Below are positions 1-6,539 of a stretch of 6,539 nucleotides of DNA, piece after piece. Every line of letters begins with the position of its first letter. Within the stretch, counting starts at the first letter, position 1. A program made the translations under genes and the position numbers. The stretch is from a virus. Taxonomy: Duplodnaviria > Heunggongvirae > Uroviricota > Caudoviricetes. The stretch spans positions 1 through 6,539 of IMG/VR virus record IMGVR_UViG_2690316002_000006; one strand, written 5' to 3'. Below the pieces are notes generated by a model, which had not been told where the DNA came from, did not search any database, and was given only the letters and a program-made list of their open reading frames with translations.

Positions 1-245
1 TTGATATGGCGAACACCGGTCTGCGCATCGTAGGAGCCAAACAGGGCCGCCACCAGGTCAAACACCCACGGTGCACAGGACTCCCCGAATGTCGGGCTAC
101 CCGGTGCATCCACAATCCGCAGTTGTTTAAAAATCGCCAGTGCATGTGCAGCCTGGTCCGGATAAATCGGAGCCGGAATAATCGACAGCCCCTTTTTCAG
201 GCGCTCTGCCCAGTCCGGACATGCCGTGCTCCATACAGGTATCAT
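1..245 (-). CDS. Phage terminase large subunit, N-terminal part (gene continues past the window start)
   Basis: Minus-strand frame open from ATG at 245 to the window edge; translation MIPVWSTACPDWAERLKKGLSIIPAPIYPDQAAHALAIFKQLRIVDAPGSPTFGESCAPWVFDLVAALFG... looks like a terminase large-subunit N-terminus. ATG overlaps the upstream stop as ATGA (245..242) and a GAGGAA Shine-Dalgarno sits 5 nt upstream. Missing from the ORF track only because it has no stop inside the window. Confidence 0.75.
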   Translation of the reverse strand, partial: MIPVWSTACPDWAERLKKGLSIIPAPIYPDQAAHALAIFKQLRIVDAPGSPTFGESCAPWVFDLVAALFGSYDAQTGVRHI

Positions 246-805
246 CCGCTTTCCTCATTCTGGTTATTCACCACCAGTCGGGGAGGTGGTGGCACCGCAA
301 AACGGTTAGCCGCTTTTTTCGCGGCATCACCTTTTGCCGATTTTTTACCGGCATCGCCTTTTTTATGGTGTGTGAACTGCGCCAGTCGCCAGGCCGCATC
401 CAGTGCCAGTTTCGGGTCAATTATCAGGTTTTCCACCAGGATCTGCCCCATAGCTTTCACCGGATCGGGAAGACCATCCTCCATATATTCAATACCATGA
501 GATATCACCGCGGGCGGAGGCATCTCCGGATTTTTTTCGTCCGGCTGTGGTATTGCAGCCACCTCACGGCGACGGGGTTTATCCTCCTGCTCTGATTTTT
601 TCTGCCGGTAAACAGGAACCTCATCCACCTCCACCGTTTCGCACTGTTTACGGGCTATAAACGCGAGCACCTCCGGATCTTTTGCCAGCTGCGAGCCTTT
701 AACCCTGGCGGTCTTCGCCGAATAACCGGCGGCAATGGCTGACGCTGTTTTGTTTTTCCCGGACATGAGCGCCAGCGCAAATTTTCGTTTTTGCGTTGTC
801 AGCAC
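242..805 (-). CDS. Phage terminase small subunit (Terminase_2-like)
   Basis: 187-aa ORF; N-terminus LTTQKRKFALALMSGKNKTASAIAAGYSAKTARVKGSQLAKDPEVLAFI matches the LT.KQ..F......N.T.AAI.AGYS.KTA pattern of Terminase_2 small subunits. GTG start at 805 follows GGGAGGAGG; lies immediately upstream of the large subunit. Confidence 0.85.
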   Translation of the reverse strand: MLTTQKRKFALALMSGKNKTASAIAAGYSAKTARVKGSQLAKDPEVLAFIARKQCETVEVDEVPVYRQKKSEQEDKPRRREVAAIPQPDEKNPEMPPPAVISHGIEYMEDGLPDPVKAMGQILVENLIIDPKLALDAAWRLAQFTHHKKGDAGKKSAKGDAAKKAANRFAVPPPPRLVVNNQNEESG

Positions 806-1094
806 AGCCTCCTCCCGGGTCCATAACGCACTCAGCCGGGTATGGTTCAGCCCATTTTTCCCGGCGTCTCATGCCGCAAATGTTAACTGCTGCCTGGTTA
901 ACATTTGCTGAAAAAGCCAGTTAACATTTTTTTCGCACAACAAACTGAATAATAAAGATAAAAACCGAAAAAATGCCCGGGCAGCCAGTTAACATGTTAA
1001 CTGGCCTGAAACAGGAATTTTTTCTCTGCATGAGACGGGGGGCGGTGTCCGGAGCGATCGTTTTTTACGCCGAATGATACCCCCCCCGGTCGGG
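806..1094. other. Putative cos region: cosB-like terminase-binding repeats, an A-tract bend and a GC-rich candidate cosN between the HNH gene and the small terminase gene
   Basis: 289-bp non-coding gap in the position cos occupies in HK97-like phages (HNH gene - cos - terS). Repeat / A-tract / repeat layout parallels lambda cosB (R3-I1-R2-R1). G-run 1037..1042 and C-run 1080..1087 flank a roughly 40-bp core. Inference only. Confidence 0.4.
876..1005. repeat. Cluster of five GTTAACAT / ATGTTAAC octamers, including a perfect 22-bp palindrome (984..1005) and a 12-bp inverted pair (876..887 / 897..908)
   Basis: Read directly: GTTAACAT at 897, 920, 988 and its reverse complement at 880, 994; GCCAGTTAACATGTTAACTGGC is its own reverse complement; GCAAATGTTAAC and GTTAACATTTGC are reverse complements 9 bp apart. 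An A-tract block (about 941..975) separates the sub-clusters. Confidence 0.8.
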
Positions 1095-1460
1095 TTACAG
1101 TCCGATGATGTCGTCCGCTCTGCCACTACCTCCGGACACCTCCGGCAGCGTCGGGTCCGGCATACCACCCGCCGCTTCACGAGCAGACTTTTGTCGATGG
1201 CATTCGGTACAGAGCGTCCAGAGATTCGTCTCCTCATTACCACCACCGAACTGAAGTGCAATTCGGTGATCGAGTTCACTATCACAGAGGTCAACCACAC
1301 GACCACAGAGACAGCACTGCCCGGCATCCCTCAGCCAGATATGACGCTTGAGGGAAACCCGGGCACTGCCACTGACACGACGCTGTTCCCCCTTCAGAAT
1401 ATTCACCCGTCGGGTATTCAGTGTTTTGATTCTGCTCTGGAGTGTACGAAGCTCAGCCAT
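1095..1460 (-). CDS. HNH endonuclease (phage packaging-associated)
   Basis: 121-aa ORF with an HNH-type motif: CCLCGRVVD...ELDHRIALQFGGGNEETNLWTLCTECHRQK (Cys pairs flanking a His-containing core). ATG start at 1460; sits directly upstream of the cos-like region and terminase genes. Confidence 0.85.
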   Translation of the reverse strand: MAELRTLQSRIKTLNTRRVNILKGEQRRVSGSARVSLKRHIWLRDAGQCCLCGRVVDLCDSELDHRIALQFGGGNEETNLWTLCTECHRQKSAREAAGGMPDPTLPEVSGGSGRADDIIGL

Positions 1461-1501
1461 GTAAAATCCCCGTCATATAACTTGTCACCAGAGGAAAGAA
1501 A

Positions 1502-1687
1502 ATGTCATCGAAAAACCGGACCCGCAGAACCACAACCCGCAATATCCGTTTCCCCAATCACATGATTGAACAGATCAACATCGCCCTTGAGCATAAAGGG
1601 TCCGGTAACTTTTCAGCGTGGGTTATTGAAGCCTGCAGAAGAAGGCTGTCAACAGAGCGTTCGGGTATGAATTACATAATTAAGTAA
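1502..1687 (+). CDS. Small ribbon-helix-helix-like protein (resembles YlcI/YnfO-type small prophage proteins)
   Basis: 61-aa ORF with a strong Shine-Dalgarno (GAGGAAAG, 5 nt before ATG). Basic N-terminus followed by NIRFPNHMIEQINIALEHKG...FSAWVIEACRRRL, consistent with a strand-helix-helix DNA-binding fold. The only convincing plus-strand gene in the window. Family name is from memory. Confidence 0.65.
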   Translation: MSSKNRTRRTTTRNIRFPNHMIEQINIALEHKGSGNFSAWVIEACRRRLSTERSGMNYIIK

Positions 1688-1816
1688 CATGGTGTTCACA
1701 GAACACACAGTTACCGGACACATCAGTTTTCCATTCGTCCCCCGGCAGTACAGGCTTCCCGTCTGACGGGATAGCCTGAAAAAACACAGAAAATTATTTG
1801 TTATAATTAATATAAC

Positions 1817-1957
1817 TTACTCAAAAAAAAGCGACGAGAAAATCAGCATCAACGAGCAATAAGCGCCAATACGTGATAACAAATGGCAGCCATATTTATC
1901 TGCAGTATAAGCAATGGACAGGATAACCACACCAGAAACCGTCAGCATAAAATCCAT
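1817..1957 (-). CDS. Candidate 46-aa hydrophobic micro-protein (below the ORF-track size cut-off)
   Basis: Manual translation: MDFMLTVSGVVILSIAYTADKYGCHLLSRIGAYCSLMLIFSSLFFE, with two hydrophobic segments. ATG at 1957 preceded by GGGGAAG 5 nt upstream. Lies in an AT-rich stretch; could be a chance ORF. Confidence 0.25.
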   Translation of the reverse strand: MDFMLTVSGVVILSIAYTADKYGCHLLSRIGAYCSLMLIFSSLFFE

Positions 1958-2313
1958 TTGAACTTCCCCGGACAAAATCGACTCATCTAAAGATTTACAG
2001 CTCTTTTTATTATCAATATGTTAAAAGTAAAATAAACAGATGTTCAATAATACGAATACAAAAACGTGCTGAAAATCAATGAATCCATTTCTGTGTTATC
2101 AATTAATAGTGATAAACATCCGGCTTCTTCCACCATCGCACCGGACCAGCGACCATGAGGGGACAACGCCGCGCTCCGTTAACGCGGTAAACCCCGGTGT
2201 GTATCGTTTTTGATTATCCCCGCACACTCGCGCAGAGGATTCTCCCGGTCGGGCTGCGGTCTCTGTTAATGCAGGAATACGGCGACAATACCGCGCATGA
2301 ATAATAAGGTCGC

Positions 2314-2538
2314 TCAACACACTGGCTGTAATGCAGCGGATACCATGCGGCATTTAGCGGCATTCATCGTACACTCAACGGTTAGCTCTTCATTCGTGGC
2401 ATTCACCTGAAAGGTCCTGGAGTGTAATTGCGTACATTTACCACTGAACGAACCTTCAACAAGAACACGACCACGCTGCAAAATACGGAACGGAATTGTT
2501 CCCTGAAAAGGCTTTACGGTTACCAATAATTTCTTCAT
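2314..2538 (-). CDS. Hypothetical 74-aa protein with four cysteines, immediately downstream of Rz
   Basis: ATG at 2538 preceded by GGAGA with 4-nt spacing, only 24 bp after the Rz stop. Translation MKKLLVTVKPFQGTIPFRILQRGRVLVEGSFSGKCTQLHSRTFQVNATNEELTVECTMNAAKCRMVSAALQPVC. The ORF-track version (2314..2556) starts at an upstream TTG; the ATG is preferred. No family recognised. Confidence 0.55.
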   Translation of the reverse strand: MKKLLVTVKPFQGTIPFRILQRGRVLVEGSFSGKCTQLHSRTFQVNATNEELTVECTMNAAKCRMVSAALQPVC

Positions 2539-2561
2539 GCATTCTCCGAATAACAAAAATA

Positions 2562-3020
2562 CTAGTTAATACACTGAGTGCGGATATATTCCTGAAGCAT
2601 TCTCAATGCTGCCTGGTCGCTGATGATTCCGTCTCTGATACCGAGAACGTTTCGTCCAGCAACCGGAGAGAGTTCGACGGCGGCATCATTGCCCACGCCG
2701 GAGGTGCCGGTGGCTTCACGCACGGTACCGGGGCAGGTGGCGTTGATCCGCAGGCGCTTACGACCAGCGGCAACATCAGCACGCAGAGTTTCATTTTCAG
2801 CTCTCGCATCGGCTAATTCCCTCGAGTATTTTGCATCGAGCGCAGCAACATCGCGCTGGCGCACCTGCATATCAGTAATGGTTGCGTTTGCCAGCTCCAG
2901 CTCTCTGGCTTTTTTATCGCGCTGCGCTTTGTAGGTGATGACGTTATCGCGGTAATGATTCAGCCCCAGACTAAGCGCACCACAGACCACCAGCAGAATA
3001 ACGGTAAACGCGGAAAGCAT
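2562..3020 (-). CDS. Rz: i-spanin Rz
   Basis: From internal ATG at 3020: MLSAFTVILLVVCGALSLGLNHYRDNVITYKAQRDKKARELELANATITDMQVRQRDVAALDAKY... closely parallels lambda Rz (N-terminal TM anchor, NHYRDN.ITYKAQRDK, MQ.RQRDVAALDAKY, C-terminal QCI/R). The ORF-track start at TTG 3128 adds 36 implausible residues. Confidence 0.85.
   Translation of the reverse strand: MLSAFTVILLVVCGALSLGLNHYRDNVITYKAQRDKKARELELANATITDMQVRQRDVAALDAKYSRELADARAENETLRADVAAGRKRLRINATCPGTVREATGTSGVGNDAAVELSPVAGRNVLGIRDGIISDQAALRMLQEYIRTQCIN
2603..2809 (-). CDS. Rz1: o-spanin Rz1, a lipoprotein embedded in the +1 frame of Rz
   Basis: MRELKMKLCVLMLPLVVSAC followed by a proline-rich stretch (GSTPPAPVPCVKPPAPPAWAMMPP): lipobox V-S-A-C and Pro-rich periplasmic domain as in lambda Rz1 (MLKLKMMLCVMMLPLVVVGC...). 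Lies entirely inside Rz. The true start could be the second Met (2794). Confidence 0.8.
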   Translation of the reverse strand: MRELKMKLCVLMLPLVVSACGSTPPAPVPCVKPPAPPAWAMMPPSNSLRLLDETFSVSETESSATRQH

Positions 3021-3257
3021 TCGGTTTATGCTCACCCCACCAGCCCTGCCGAAGTCAACGCCATCCAGGTTATGGAAAGAAAAAGAACAACCAGCATTAG
3101 TGAAAATGAAATACCGACGATTACACAAAGGCCCTTCGCCAGCATTATGAGTTTGTCTGACATCTTTACCCCTTAATAGCAGTAATTAACCGGGCAACCA
3201 CCCATAAAAACGGAATCAGCCAGACCAGCAAAAATTTCCAGTCCGTTTTTATCATCT

Positions 3258-3953
3258 TCATGCTGCGGTAGCTCTCCATGCAGCAAGCAGACCAGCAATC
3301 CACTGAACACCTTTTGGGGTGAATTTAACCTGCGTAAAAGCATGACCATTGCCCGCCTCGCCCGTTTTCACGCTAAACCGCCCCGCATCCAGGTGATGCG
3401 AGTAAGGCGTCATTTTTCCAGCGAGGCGATACATTATTCCGTTCTCCAACAAAAACAGCCGGAAATCGGTTTCTTTGATACCGAGTAACTTAGCAACTTC
3501 CCGGAATCCCATCAGACCAGATGCTTCAACATAGTTATCAACAAATTCAGCCTTCGGCGCTGCTATTGCCAGTTGATTTTCCAGCACTGCTTTCTGTTCA
3601 GCCAGTTTTGCCGCAAATCGCAACGCCTCAGGTAAAGTCCGGGGGATCTGAATACCATGCATCGCTTTGAGTCTTGCCAGCACAGAACGACGAACGGCCT
3701 TTGACTCCCTCATGCCAACGAGCATCATCTGGTCAAAATCCAGATCATAGTATGCCGTTCTTGTCTGGTTATTGTTTAACCGGAATTTTTTTCCGGTTCC
3801 ATCAAGCTCTAGCTCATCCTCAATTTTTGCAAGAAACTTACGCGGTTCATGAGGGACTTCTCCGGCTTCTGCCCGGGCTGGATTAATAATGTTATTCAGA
3901 AAATCCAGACTACTCATGGATATTTCATGATCGATAGAAATCATCTCTTTCAT
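3258..3953 (-). CDS. Antirepressor-like protein with a C-terminal KilAC-type domain
   Basis: 231-aa ORF, ATG at 3953 with AAGGAA Shine-Dalgarno. C-terminal region FREVAKLLGIKETDFRLFLLENGIMYRLAGKMTPYSHHLDAGRFSVKTGEAGNGHAFTQVKFTPKGVQWIAGLL matches the KilAC signature. N-terminal domain not confidently assigned. Confidence 0.65.
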   Translation of the reverse strand: MKEMISIDHEISMSSLDFLNNIINPARAEAGEVPHEPRKFLAKIEDELELDGTGKKFRLNNNQTRTAYYDLDFDQMMLVGMRESKAVRRSVLARLKAMHGIQIPRTLPEALRFAAKLAEQKAVLENQLAIAAPKAEFVDNYVEASGLMGFREVAKLLGIKETDFRLFLLENGIMYRLAGKMTPYSHHLDAGRFSVKTGEAGNGHAFTQVKFTPKGVQWIAGLLAAWRATAA

Positions 3954-4085
3954 GGTTGATTCCTTTTAGTGATGAACCCTGCGCACAGGAATAACCAGCC
4001 CAAAGAGGGTTAACCAGACCACTGCCGGTTATCCACCAGGGCTCATCCTGAAAGGTTCTTTGGTTTATTTACGCTTGTGCGAAGC

Positions 4086-4117
4086 ACAGAAATGACAAAG
4101 GCACCATTACGGTGCCT
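4086..4117 (-). terminator. Candidate intrinsic terminator downstream of the endolysin gene
   Basis: Minus-strand RNA: AGGCACC-GUAAU-GGUGCCU (7-bp stem, 5-nt loop; plus 4099..4117) followed by UUUGUCAUUUCUG. About 110 nt after the endolysin stop. Confidence 0.4.
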
Positions 4118-4226
4118 CTGCGTGAAATAATCTGCCTAACTTTATTCACTTACATTTTGCCAGTTCGCAGGATTTCGTGTTATCCGCCCGCGCTGGCCAA
4201 CGTCATTTTTCAGCAAAATATTCTGC

Positions 4227-4760
4227 TTATCTGTCGATTCCCCAGCACGCCAGAGCGCTCTCCTGGTCACGACGGGATACCTGACCATAACAGTTATTTG
4301 AGCGAATACGGCAGTCTCTGCCACCGTCCTTAATCCACCAGCGAATCGCTTCGCAGGCACCTTTTCGATCTCCTGCATTAATTCGTTTATAAAACGTCGA
4401 CGGGAAACACTTACCTGGGCCAATGTTGTAAGGACAGAATGACGCAATACCCGCTTTCTGGGGTTCAGTCAGTGGCACTTTGATGTTTTTCGCCACCCAT
4501 GCCAGCGCCTTATCACGCTCAATGGCGTTAACCCGGTCGCATTTTTCCTTCGACAACTTCATGCCCGGAACGACAGGTTTACCATCCACCAGGATGGCAC
4601 CGCGGCAGATGGTCCAGATACCCGCGCCATCACGGTATGCCGTGGTGTGGTTACCTTCCTTTTCATCCAGAAACTGGTCGAGGATTTCAGGCGCAGGCGC
4701 ACCTGCGGCAATCAGCGCCAGAACGGCAGCCGACAGGCCGTATTTGATTTTGGTGTTCAT
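4227..4760 (-). CDS. SAR endolysin (T4-lysozyme-type muramidase with signal-anchor-release N-terminus)
   Basis: 177 aa; N-terminal Gly/Ala-rich weakly hydrophobic segment YGLSAAVLALIAAGAPAP; catalytic spacing E35-x8-D44-x5-T50 (EGNHTTAYRDGAGIWT) as in T4 lysozyme and phage 21 R. Strongly resembles E. coli prophage lysozymes such as RrrQ (from memory). Confidence 0.85.
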   Translation of the reverse strand: MNTKIKYGLSAAVLALIAAGAPAPEILDQFLDEKEGNHTTAYRDGAGIWTICRGAILVDGKPVVPGMKLSKEKCDRVNAIERDKALAWVAKNIKVPLTEPQKAGIASFCPYNIGPGKCFPSTFYKRINAGDRKGACEAIRWWIKDGGRDCRIRSNNCYGQVSRRDQESALACWGIDR

Positions 4761-4810
4761 GGATATTTATCAGGGTTTATCGATTTCAAATCCCTGGATA
4801 TGTTAAGTCT

Positions 4811-5155
4811 TCAGGCCAGCGGTGGAGTCTTCAGAGAACCAGTAATTATTCCCGGTAGTTTTCCTCTGTAGGTTATCAACACATCCTGCGCCTCTAAAAT
4901 GATGGGCCGCTTTTCCGGCAACGGACCATCCCCTTCACATAACCCGGCAGCAACATCCATGAAAAACTGCTTCGCCTGCTTTTTCGCCTCCGCTTCGTAA
5001 AACTCCAGCGTGGCACCTTCAGTACGGTCAAGACTAATCGCCACATTTGGCAACAACAGTGACGGATACCCACCAATTTCCAGTGCCACAGTAACAGTAA
5101 TCTTATCCGGGTAATTATTTATCCCTTTAACAACCAGTTCGTATTTTTTCTTCAT
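4811..5155 (-). CDS. Hypothetical 114-aa protein inserted between holin and endolysin
   Basis: ATG at 5155 lies 4 nt after the holin stop, with GGGGAGAG Shine-Dalgarno inside the holin 3' end. Soluble-looking, no signal peptide or TM segment. Same position as ydfR in the K-12 Qin prophage (from memory); function unknown. Confidence 0.6.
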   Translation of the reverse strand: MKKKYELVVKGINNYPDKITVTVALEIGGYPSLLLPNVAISLDRTEGATLEFYEAEAKKQAKQFFMDVAAGLCEGDGPLPEKRPIILEAQDVLITYRGKLPGIITGSLKTPPLA

Positions 5156-5159
5156 CGCT

Positions 5160-5366
5160 TTACTCTCCCCGCGCCGCCTTACGCTTATCTTCTTTAATCT
5201 TGAAATAAAGGTTAGTCAGATACGTCAGCAGGCCAAACAGCAGACTCCCCAGCACACCGATTGCCACCCACTGGGACGGAGAGACTTTGTCCAGCAGCTG
5301 CAGTAACCAGTATCCCGTCCCCACCGCTGACGTGGTGTATGACACACCCGTTGTGATTTTTTCCAT
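5160..5366 (-). CDS. Phage-21-type pinholin (class II holin)
   Basis: From ATG at 5366: [68 protein letters not shown], near-collinear with S21/EssQ (two TM segments, charged C-terminus ...KAARGE). The ORF-track version (to 5435, GTG start) adds 23 residues of doubtful reality. Confidence 0.8.
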
Positions 5367-5621
5367 CTGATGTATGTCTCCGTCACCGCCGACAGAAAAT
5401 GAAAGTAAAGGAAAACAAAAAGCCGCCAGTGTCACCCACTGACGGCCAACTCCGGGAGCCGTGATTATGGCATTCAGGCTCTGCTAAAAATGCCAGATAA
5501 CATTCCGACCAACCCCTGATTCAGGTTATAAATGACACAATATCTTGACAACATCCGTCACTGTCTGTCAGAAAATGTACTGCCAAATATAAGTATCATG
5601 TGAAGTACATCTACCCGTTTT

Positions 5622-5660
5622 AGCCAGCGTCCTTCAGAGTGGGCGCTGGCTTTTTTTATT
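5622..5660 (+). terminator. Plus-strand intrinsic terminator abutting the 3' end of the upstream minus-strand gene
   Basis: AGCCAGCGUCC (5622..5632) - 8-nt loop - GGGCGCUGGCU (5641..5651), an 11-bp stem with one G-U pair, followed by TTTTTT(A)TT on the plus strand. On the minus strand the hairpin is followed by AAAACGGG, so it is not a minus-strand terminator. Confidence 0.5.
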
Positions 5661-6195
5661 ATGCTGCCGGTGCATTTATCTCCAGCATCAGACTTTCTAT
5701 CTCAACGCCATACGCTGCATTTTTTGTAACATCCGTCAGCGTCAGCGCATTCAGTCCCAGTGTCAGACTGTCTTTTATAACCTGGAATGCCGGGCCAGCC
5801 ACTCCATTCAGTTTCGGAGTAACCGTGGCACTGCCGGCGGTGAACACCAGCTCCAGCGTCTGCCAGTCGTTACCGTAATCGCCGAACTCCCCCAGCTTCG
5901 TGTTTCCGGCTTTCCTGTGATGCATCAGATTCACTCTGCCGTCAGTGGTCTGAGTGAAGTACGACATCAGGAACGGATTACCGGTACCCGTCATCGCCAC
6001 ACCATCAGGAACGGGAGCATCCGTATACAGATAAATCCCCAGCCCGAACTGATTGTTGGTCAGTGCGCCTGACAGGCGGAACTTACAGGTCAGTCTGCCG
6101 CCCTGTGTCAGCAGGGTAATTGCGTCATCCACCGGATGCGTCAGGGACCAGGTTTTATTGCTCTGCTTGGTGATCTTAAATACACCATCTGACAA
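5659..6195 (-). CDS. 3' part of a cargo ORF upstream of the lysis cassette (possibly lectin-like; hypothetical)
   Basis: Protein-like translation (...GWSIKDGGIQLSDGVFKITKQSNKTWSLTHPVDD...GVEIESLMLEINAPAA) in a frame that stays open upstream to a stop at 6250..6252 with no ATG or GTG in between; the ORF-track start is a TTG. Probably the C-terminal portion of a larger, frame-interrupted gene. Confidence 0.5.
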   Translation of the reverse strand: MSDGVFKITKQSNKTWSLTHPVDDAITLLTQGGRLTCKFRLSGALTNNQFGLGIYLYTDAPVPDGVAMTGTGNPFLMSYFTQTTDGRVNLMHHRKAGNTKLGEFGDYGNDWQTLELVFTAGSATVTPKLNGVAGPAFQVIKDSLTLGLNALTLTDVTKNAAYGVEIESLMLEINAPAA

Positions 6196-6539
6196 CTGAA
6201 TTCCGCCATCCTTAATGCTCCAGCCCTGCGCAGCAGAATTTCCGGTGCCTTACCACTGATGAAGGCTGAGGTGCGCCCGGCTGCGTTCAGAATAGCGGTT
6301 GCCAGACGATCCGGAATAATGCTCCTGCGCGCCCATGAACTGAAATGTGTCGGGCGGTTTGATGATACCTGGTTTCCATTCGTTCTCGATGCCGCACCGT
6401 AATATCCTGATGCCGGAATATCCGGATCTTCTGCCGGCGCGTTAGTGGCGGTATTGACGCCGTTACCGTCTGTCATGAAGGGCACAAAATAAACGCCCTC
6501 ACTCTCCCTGTTTTTATACCCGCCGTACACGGTGTCGTA
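6141..6539 (-). CDS. Upstream portion of the same cargo gene, in a different frame (open to the window edge)
   Basis: Frame open from the window edge: DTVYGGYKNRESEGVYFVPFMTDGNGVNTATNAPAEDPDIPASGYYGAASRTNGNQV...AILNAAGRTSAFISGK... The last roughly 30 codons (R-rich, overlapping the downstream frame) look non-native, consistent with a frame switch near 6250. Confidence 0.4.
   Translation of the reverse strand, partial: YDTVYGGYKNRESEGVYFVPFMTDGNGVNTATNAPAEDPDIPASGYYGAASRTNGNQVSSNRPTHFSSWARRSIIPDRLATAILNAAGRTSAFISGKAPEILLRRAGALRMAEFSCQMVYLRSPSRAIKPGP

Follow-up and report, generated by a model that had tools for sequence, protein, structure and literature searches.

A widespread structured leader RNA, predicted to sequester the Shine-Dalgarno sequence, precedes an Ant-like gene in the lysis cassette of an Escherichia coli prophage

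Introduction

Why does an antirepressor-like gene sit inside a phage lysis cassette, and what holds it in check there? The question is raised by an Ant-like open reading frame (ORF) of 231 amino acids (aa) that lies between the endolysin gene R and the spanin gene Rz in a 6,539-nucleotide (nt) stretch of viral DNA, positions 1 to 6,539 of the IMG/VR record IMGVR_UViG_2690316002_000006. This whole stretch, which we call the window, corresponds to the late region of a lambdoid, Stx-phage-like Escherichia coli prophage and is read on the minus strand, the direction in which the lysis genes are transcribed; coordinates are window positions unless another record or locus is named. The gene alone adds little, because annotations of Stx phages, beginning with 933W, already place an ant between R and Rz. 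The arrangement is thus a known one, and this very allele is already named in RefSeq, as 'phage antirepressor KilAC domain-containing protein'. What is new is the RNA that precedes the gene, a widespread and unannotated leader without an Rfam family, and it is this leader, rather than the gene, that we regard as the more valuable finding.

A structured leader RNA before the Ant-like gene

Homologues of the Ant-like gene in Plesiomonas, Enterobacter and Yersinia sit within or immediately behind lysis cassettes that share no homology with each other. The gaps in front of these homologues measure 220-320 nt, and the gap alignment contains a conserved module of ~175 nt that is also present before the unrelated Ant of phage YYZ-2008. 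The module has three parts: a GC-rich hairpin followed by a T-run, with a stem that differs from lineage to lineage; a small hairpin; and a core of ~105 nt that ends at the Shine-Dalgarno (SD) sequence and the ATG. The two sides of the small hairpin's stem vary in the leader alignments yet remain complementary, and the helix (41-44:53-56) was recovered in a 72-sequence alignment. The core is closed by a basal helix in which an anti-SD, CCUUU (4055-4051), pairs with the SD, AAAGG (3966-3962), and a long irregular stem lies between the two. The initial annotation had given the gene a strong SD. In part this stands, as AAGGA is found 7 nt 5' of the ATG of the Ant-like ORF; but the same motif is predicted to be paired with the conserved anti-SD at the base of a covarying stem of ~105 nt, so that the strong SD would be occluded. 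With its SD predicted to be base-paired, the gene looks as if it is regulated translationally or post-transcriptionally. The minimum free energy (MFE) of the core is -43.1 kcal/mol and the z-score of the whole gap is -4.83; the SD is sequestered in the MFE structure of nearly all sequences folded singly, and RNAalifold returns the anti-SD:SD helix together with a 9-bp helix that holds 6 compensatory pairs.

Leader copies were gathered in two scans of IMG/VR with DNA patterns and in one protein-guided search of GTDB genomes, which together gave 121 nhmmer hits, 80 of them unique. Column-pair covariation on alignments registered by a hidden Markov model was noisy or missed helices because of register shifts, and a covariance model built from the leaders, R1, was used instead; among the collected loci it has 91 full-length matches, of which 64 are distinct. 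By three measures the two sides of the stem change in concert, and for none of the three did any of 500 shuffles reach the observed value. Cells that form a standard pair amount to 92.6%, against 77.0% after shuffling and 33-52% when the 3' partners are slid; the covariation score is 0.505, against 0.227 and at most 0.136; and 21 of 29 pairs are changed on both sides, against 15.1 and 6-12. Many of these two-sided changes are transversions. G.U is far more frequent than A.C in the pairs, a sign that it is the RNA of the sense strand that folds. An independent RNAalifold run on the R1 alignment arrives at the same fold, at -31.3 kcal/mol and with 19 of 28 pairs compensatory. The window's leader type belongs to the R1 seed, so its own match is partly by construction; the independent members P22, 933W, ECP1 and MG40 score 69-88 bits.

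A search of Rfam 15 with cmscan gave no match at E<=1 in the whole window, and only chance-level ones (E>=1.7) in 3930-4240. Several known small RNA (sRNA) families were considered as the identity of the leader and rejected: AgvB, AsxR, STnc100, IsrK and C4 have no Rfam match to it, AgvB and AsxR are located downstream of the PR' moron site (PMC4104026), PasA maps between the esterase and holin genes, and STnc100, IsrK and C4 have their matches at other places in related prophages. Two additional pairings were noticed by eye, GAACC (5') with GGUUC (3') and CCAAAGA with UCUUUGG, as a possible switch or pseudoknot, and were recovered neither by MFE folding nor by RNAalifold. A mini-ORF within the leader (ATG AGC CCT GGT GGA TAA) is not conserved across leader types and was rejected for that reason.

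The 5' end of the module is formed by a hairpin resembling an intrinsic terminator. The initial annotation had placed such a hairpin before the gene, at 4086-4117, and our scan agrees, with an overlapping stem at 4121-4095 whose tail, CATTTCTGTG, runs to 4085. We count 12 pairs in this stem, 6 of them G-C, and the T-rich tail is interrupted (TTTGTCATTTCT) at the place where relatives carry canonical runs of T5-T7; termination itself is a prediction. Equivalents are common in the family: a GC-rich hairpin with a T-run lies upstream of 55 of the 64 distinct homologous leaders, mostly ending 27-51 nt before the core, and the stem sequences differ. Judged by this comparison of leaders, the upstream hairpin is beyond chance.

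Distribution of the leader and exchange of its cargo

The leader of the window matches 291 phage records, among them 933W, P22-like Salmonella phages and Klebsiella phages. Its 109-nt core is found in 863 of 5426 complete E. coli genomes, at 2951 places in all (median 3 per genome, maximum 10), and no annotated feature lies under the core in the matches listed from these genomes. An ORF begins at the expected spacing after 72 of the 80 unique leader copies. The families encoded by this cargo are diverse: the KilAC type of the window, Rha-type, KilA-N with or without ORF11CD3, AntA, P22_AR_N, HNH_3, T5orf172/MUG113 and TerB, with the qualification that the largest Rha-type cluster matches Phage_pRha only below the Pfam cut-off.

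Two or three copies of the leader can stand before different genes in a single phage, as they do, for example, in the collected loci L006, L020, L240, L254 and L260 and in the prophage of E. coli E110019. The Plesiomonas locus L006 has one leader before a KilAC gene (4896-5003) and another before an AntA gene (6387-6481), and phage ECP1 (L260) has one before a KilA-N gene (403-510) and another before an HNH endonuclease gene (2001-2103). In the E110019 prophage (L005) a second, diverged leader follows Q and a tRNA-Ile gene and directly precedes a TerB-like 'tellurite resistance' gene, with an STnc100 sRNA gene further downstream (17529-17630, 16744-16930). The same prophage (21449-21647 and 19921-21395) carries a P1-like immI arrangement (C4 antisense RNA, a1/b1 targets and IsrK) upstream of another 'antirepressor Ant', and one more KilAC-domain gene in its nin region, so that at least three Ant-class genes are present in one prophage with different RNA controls.

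The boundary between leader and cargo is sharp. Homology of YYZ-2008 to the window ends at 3949. In four IMG/VR contigs, an identity of 94-95% to the window extends from R across the leader and breaks off 10 nt inside the ORF, at the start of a P22_AR_N gene. Since phage homology breaks within ~10 nt of the start codon, the leader behaves as a conserved linker for cargo exchange. Late-operon loci that bear the leader adjoin non-homologous lysis cassettes in Plesiomonas, Enterobacter, Yersinia and P22-like phages. The leader was not found at empty sites, at the P1-like ant1 locus or at distant homologue loci in Pseudomonas, Comamonas and Providencia; its absence from these distant loci indicates that leader and protein are separable modules.

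The P22 leader and the small RNA P22F

The relative in phage P22 links the leader to an RNA that has been seen in infected cells. R1 matches P22 (L261, NC_002371, 2540-2647) just upstream of rha (orf201), with 69.2 bits. As in the window, an accessory gene of the late operon stands just after lysis genes and behind the same structured leader; the differences are that the P22 cargo consists of Phage_pRha and ORF11CD3 and that it sits after Rz/Rz1, not between R and Rz. The ATG defined by the leader (2645-2647) lies 23 codons inside the annotated rha, which starts at 2576, and the match to the Pfam Rha domain starts at residue 48 of the annotated product; to judge from these positions, the annotated rha start may be too far upstream.

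Ten small RNAs of P22 from infected Salmonella were reported in a June 2026 paper (PMC13397905). One of them, P22F, is 89 nt long, has 'no known function', ends 6 nt from the start of rha and was detected in infected cells and in vesicles, and its authors offer neither a structure nor a family nor a role in cis (PMC13397905). We find that the published P22F sequence is identical to the P22 leader. It aligns to ~4048-3956 of the window, starting just 3' of the anti-SD and ending just 3' of the SD. As P22F is the P22 leader, at least one member of the leader family accumulates as a discrete RNA during infection.

Insertion between R and Rz

The initial annotation described an extra gene between endolysin and Rz, and related prophages bear this out. 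Two E. coli prophages with homologous R and Rz lack ant: in L003 R is followed by Rz, and in L004 three small ORFs stand between the two. Their homology to the window ends at 4141 on the R side, 86 nt past the R stop codon, and resumes on the Rz side at 3242 (L004) or 2996 (L003). As related prophages are without the gene at this site, the Ant-like gene is an insertion; the inserted block, ~3243-4140, takes in the hairpin with its stem at 4121-4095.

That Stx phages keep an ant gene in this slot had also been stated in that annotation, correctly. In phage 933W the gene between R and Rz is annotated as ant and described as 'similar to Ant antirepressor of bacteriophage P22; possible regulation of host cell lysis', and the annotation of phage phi-O153 gives the order S, R, ant, Rz. 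The 933W gene (NP_049506), like its counterparts in YYZ-2008 and other Stx1/Stx2 phages, shares the R-Rz slot and the 'anti-repressor' class of annotation with the window, and the 933W leader, which scores 88.5 bits with R1, is 76.5% identical to the window leader over 177 nt. The proteins differ: the Ant of 933W and YYZ-2008 combines P22_AR_N with ORF11CD3 in 189 aa, whereas the window protein combines an uncharacterised N-terminal half with KilAC in 231 aa, and BLASTP between them (E 0.66) finds them unrelated. On these comparisons the R-Rz slot is conserved and the gene that fills it is not.

The Ant-like protein

The KilAC-type gene of 231 aa recognised in the initial annotation is confirmed by Pfam, in which ANT/KilAC (PF03374) matches residues 125-224 (nt 3282-3581) at E 2.7e-28, with 98.9 bits against a cut-off of 25.3 and over profile positions 1-106 of 108. 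The PHROG family phrog_63, 'anti-repressor Ant', matches the protein at E 3.1e-58, with residues 2-122 aligned to positions 122-245 of the profile, downstream of that profile's N-terminal region. Against a Plesiomonas homologue of 88% identity the ratio of nonsynonymous to synonymous substitution rates is 0.075, and it is low in both halves; the ORF is real, intact and under purifying selection. There are more than 1300 homologues, many of them full length (~231 aa) and spread across Enterobacterales, and homologues of the same length occur in Escherichia, Salmonella, Plesiomonas, Cronobacter, Pantoea, Enterobacter, Providencia and Yersinia.

For the N-terminal half (residues 1-124, nt 3582-3953) Pfam returns no match even at E 10, nor do NCBIfam and PADLOC, and hhalign gives a probability of at most 2% against Rha-type clusters. 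Profile searches of this half found no Bro-N, AntA, Rha or KilA-N domain. AntA, Rha and Bro-N had been the candidates named in the initial annotation; what the half does resemble is the middle region of P1-type Ant1. BLASTP aligns residues 22-223 of the Ant-like protein, KilAC included, with residues 124-341 of Ant1 from the icd-ant1 locus of a P1-like phage (37% identity, E 6e-35), which makes the window protein equivalent to P1 Ant minus its first ~120 residues. On this alignment P1-like Ant1 is the best characterised relative of the protein. Both predicted domains resemble winged-helix DNA-binding folds, weakly.

Within the N-terminal half, residues 33-72 (3738-3857) are hypervariable, with at least three discrete allelic forms (for example VPHEPRKFLAKIEDELELDG vs KPVRPSDFHARVNDEIDEEL) among homologues that are otherwise 80-99% identical. 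This pattern suggests mosaic exchange of a specificity determinant. The Ant of phage Lys8385Vzw is 99.5% identical otherwise and differs in the last 12 residues (~3258-3296), with tblastn aligning residues 1-219 only, which points to a further recombination junction near the 3' end of the gene.

Discussion

The reading that in our view best explains the insertion, the three-part module, the covariation of the stem, the predicted SD:anti-SD pairing, the swapping of cargo at the start codon and the late-operon context in several unrelated phage groups is that the Ant-like gene is an interchangeable cargo gene in a conserved accessory slot of lambdoid and P22-like late operons, gated by RNA. Taken as a whole we consider this somewhat more probable than its negation. 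The gene would have no promoter of its own and would be transcribed within the Q-antiterminated late transcript, which is its most likely source given that we find no sigma-70-like promoter, no terminator after the gene and the next ORF 3 nt on. The 5' terminator would stop RNA polymerase that is not Q-modified, for example polymerase reading through in a lysogen, and translation of the cistron would be blocked by the leader stem for as long as the stem stays closed and uncut. Release might come about by RNase III or RNase E processing, or through a phage late protein, a host factor or a ligand. The leader would also serve as a recombination linker at which cargo genes swap. Two layers of silencing before cargos of the Ant, Rha, KilA and nuclease types suggest that the products are harmful if mistimed, and this fits rha, whose product inhibits phage growth in IHF-deficient hosts according to the summary of Henthorn & Friedman 1995 given in PMC4936722.

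We speculate further, and here give the proposal slightly less than an even chance, that the leaders make up one very common cis-regulatory RNA module of enterobacterial temperate phages, not recognised before. This P22F family (terminator, small hairpin and SD-occluding stem of ~105 nt) would gate harmful late-operon cargos of the Ant, Rha, KilA, AntA, HNH, T5orf172 and TerB types, would answer a specific trigger such as RNase III or E processing, a phage protein or a ligand, and would double as a cargo-exchange linker.

Several points weigh against RNA gating. No terminator is detectable in 9 of the 64 distinct leaders, and a weak or non-sigma-70 promoter might be present. The N-terminal half of the protein is without an assignable fold family, and members of the protein family in Pseudomonas, Comamonas and other loci have no such leader before them. 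Sequestration of the SD is a model prediction; the SD:anti-SD helix, being nearly invariant, has no covariation of its own, and the alignment used for covariation was fitted to a model and is thereby biased towards the structure modelled. Neither the control with slid partners nor the MFE folding of single sequences depends on that fitting, and both agree with the fold. Lastly, P22F ends between SD and AUG, and this could mark it as an sRNA in its own right or as the product of a cleavage that inactivates the message instead of activating it.

The initial annotation preferred a different answer, a separately regulated moron with an internal promoter. In that case the terminator would insulate the gene, a promoter in 3954-4226 would be active in the lysogen, and an antirepressor product would modulate induction of its own or neighbouring prophages. 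Morons with their own regulatory signals, as reportedly set out by Juhala et al. in 2000, are classic in lambdoid late regions. In the sense of those authors, the gene is indeed extra DNA that homologous phages lack at the site (L003 and L004), a terminator-like hairpin separates it from R, and its protein is homologous to P1-type Ant1; it has no downstream terminator of its own, as the minus strand between ant and Rz (3258-2562) carries no terminator-like site and the sole one lies upstream, at 4121-4095. The next start codon, the ATG of a 31-aa ORF, follows almost directly, 3 nt after the stop codon of ant (TGAAGATG). A consensus scan, which is blind to weak or activator-dependent promoters, found no sigma-70-like promoter on the minus strand at 2400-5700, and no conserved -35/-10 could be made out by eye in the leader alignments. 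The stretch from terminator to ATG is filled by covarying helices that would occlude the SD. An independent moron is on this evidence unlikely, even with the ant moron of P22-like phages as a precedent (PMC2629481). The P22 immI ant moron (mnt, arc, ant, sar) is likewise an antirepressor-class gene and a variable moron in the late operon under dedicated tight control (PMC2629481); it differs in adjoining the tailspike gene and in having its own promoters, protein repressors and an antisense sar RNA, and none of these features was found in the window.

It is also improbable, we think, that the leader is chiefly a stand-alone or processed sRNA like P22F with targets in trans, with the ORF merely adjoining it and the hairpin at 4121-4095 being the 3' end of an RNA derived from the 3' untranslated region of R. 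The discrete 89-nt RNA that matches the leader in P22-infected cells and vesicles (PMC13397905) speaks for such a role, and so does the wealth of Hfq-bound sRNAs at moron sites of Stx-type prophages (PMC4104026; Pas sRNA preprint). If this were the leader's main function, however, one would not expect the element always to end at SD and ATG with an ORF so regularly at the expected spacing, nor its basal helix to be the SD:anti-SD pair. The element lacks a terminator at its 3' end, the one in the module being on its 5' side, and it is not AgvB, AsxR, STnc100, IsrK or another Rfam family, PasA mapping elsewhere.

An RNA-gated cargo gene leaves the role of the product itself to be considered. Antirepressor activity has been shown for P1 Ant, and by homology to it the Ant-like protein may be an antirepressor directed at co-resident or superinfecting phages. 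In the literature searched, no experiment on the Ant-like protein turned up. As judged from sequence comparison, that the protein is an antirepressor at all seems to us doubtful, and with low confidence we would describe it more broadly as a tightly restricted, potentially harmful regulator that binds DNA or a repressor and is made late in lytic growth. Very unlikely is a product that is no antirepressor and instead times lysis, kills the host or interferes in a Rha-like way with phage growth or competitors: the position inside the lysis cassette, the 933W note on host cell lysis, the growth-inhibiting rha in the P22 slot (as summarised in PMC4936722) and the nuclease and KilA-N cargos, which suggest a harmful or defence-related class, speak for it, but the protein has no membrane or lysis-related domain, both of its predicted domains are weakly like winged-helix DNA-binding folds, its homologues lie after and not inside the lysis cassettes of Enterobacter, Yersinia and P22-like phages, and no PADLOC defence model matches.

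How does the leader compare with controls known from other phages? The immI loci of P1 and P7, with Ant1/Ant2, are similar in that the protein is homologous and ant-type expression appears in both cases to be controlled after transcription start. They differ in that the window protein is without the first ~120 residues of Ant1, and in that control there is by antisense RNA, whereas in the window it is predicted to be by a stem that sequesters the SD in cis; the window has no Rfam match to C4, c4-a1b1 or isrK, and no icd. Phage leaders that sequester a ribosome-binding site are another parallel, among them the RNase III site of the lambda N leader, Mu com/mom and the T4 genes with a late promoter inside the hairpin (I-TevI, e, soc). 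There a hairpin hides the SD of a cistron in the longer transcript, and the SD is freed by processing, by a protein or by an alternative 5' end; no sequence or structural homology with them is claimed. Unlike those leaders, the element in the window is a portable module with a terminator at its 5' end, common to many unrelated cargos.

Why might such a leader be important? It is present in ~16% of complete E. coli genomes, in up to 10 copies in enterohaemorrhagic E. coli strains, and in 933W and P22 as well, and it could matter more than the gene. Its distribution suggests that one shared RNA gate silences a whole group of accessory genes in late operons, among them those for antirepressor-like regulators, KilA/Rha proteins and nucleases; some of these have been linked to prophage cross-talk and Stx-phage biology. 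It gives P22F a structural and cis-regulatory hypothesis, may bear on the old observation that rha of P22 and phi80 must be kept in check, and offers a mechanism for mosaic exchange of cargo at a conserved linker.

Features of the window

The lysis cassette around the Ant-like gene and the flanking genes are listed in Table 1.

Table 1. Positions of the leader elements, the Ant-like gene and the neighbouring genes in the 6,539-nt window.
Feature	Position	Strand	Basis or remark
DUF6645 ORF	5659-6195	minus	probably the C-terminal part of a NanS-p-type esterase
P21-type holin	5160-5435	minus	profile search
DUF1327/YdfR gene	4811-5155	minus	profile search
Endolysin R (phage lysozyme)	4227-4760	minus	Pfam Phage_lysozyme, E 3.3e-24; hydrophobic N-terminus resembling a signal-arrest-release sequence (SAR-like)
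Gap between R and the Ant-like ORF	3954-4226	minus	273 nt
Intrinsic-terminator-like hairpin	4085-4121	minus	stem 4121-4095, core GGCACC/GGTGCC; scan and MFE fold; 5' end of the inserted module
Small conserved hairpin	4073-4085	minus	GCUU-CGCAC-AAGC here, GCGC..GCGC in most relatives
Structured leader core	3951-4059	minus	covariance model R1, 93.5 bits, E 7.5e-20; full-length, ends in ATG
Ant-like ORF	3258-3953	minus	231 aa; ATG start
Hydrophobic small ORF	3166-3261	minus	31 aa; coding sequence in phage PhiR5_1; weak phrog_6632 match
Hydrophobic small ORF	3032-3163	minus	43 aa; phrog_4906, E 6.6e-24
Rz i-spanin	2562-3017	minus	Pfam Phage_lysis, E 2.9e-39; probable ATG at 3017
Rz1 o-spanin, embedded in Rz	2603-2809	minus	Pfam Rz1, E 6.9e-21
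DUF3950 gene	1502-1687	opposite	
HNH endonuclease	1095-1460		
Small terminase	242-805		

The two hydrophobic ORFs that follow ant, of 31 and 43 aa, are also found in L004, the related prophage without ant, and RefSeq E110019 and PhiR5_1 list the 43-aa ORF as a hypothetical protein; both ORFs may be small membrane proteins of the lysis cassette. Between holin and endolysin the DUF1327/YdfR gene is a second non-lysis gene in the cassette, and its counterpart in phage PhiR5_1, at 636 nt, has roughly double the length. Convergent terminator-like hairpins lie in the gap that separates the esterase-like ORF from the holin gene (5436-5658), one on the plus strand (5622-5651, with a T7 run) and one on the minus strand (5447-5421); this is the position described for prophage sRNAs of the PasA/PasC and AsxR/AgvB types, and Rfam has no match in it. 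The prophage of E. coli E110019 is 97.4% identical to window positions 2119-6245 and 99.9% identical to 2900-4300, and this latter segment, from the 3' end of R through the start of Rz, is present nearly whole in 194 of the 5426 complete E. coli genomes.

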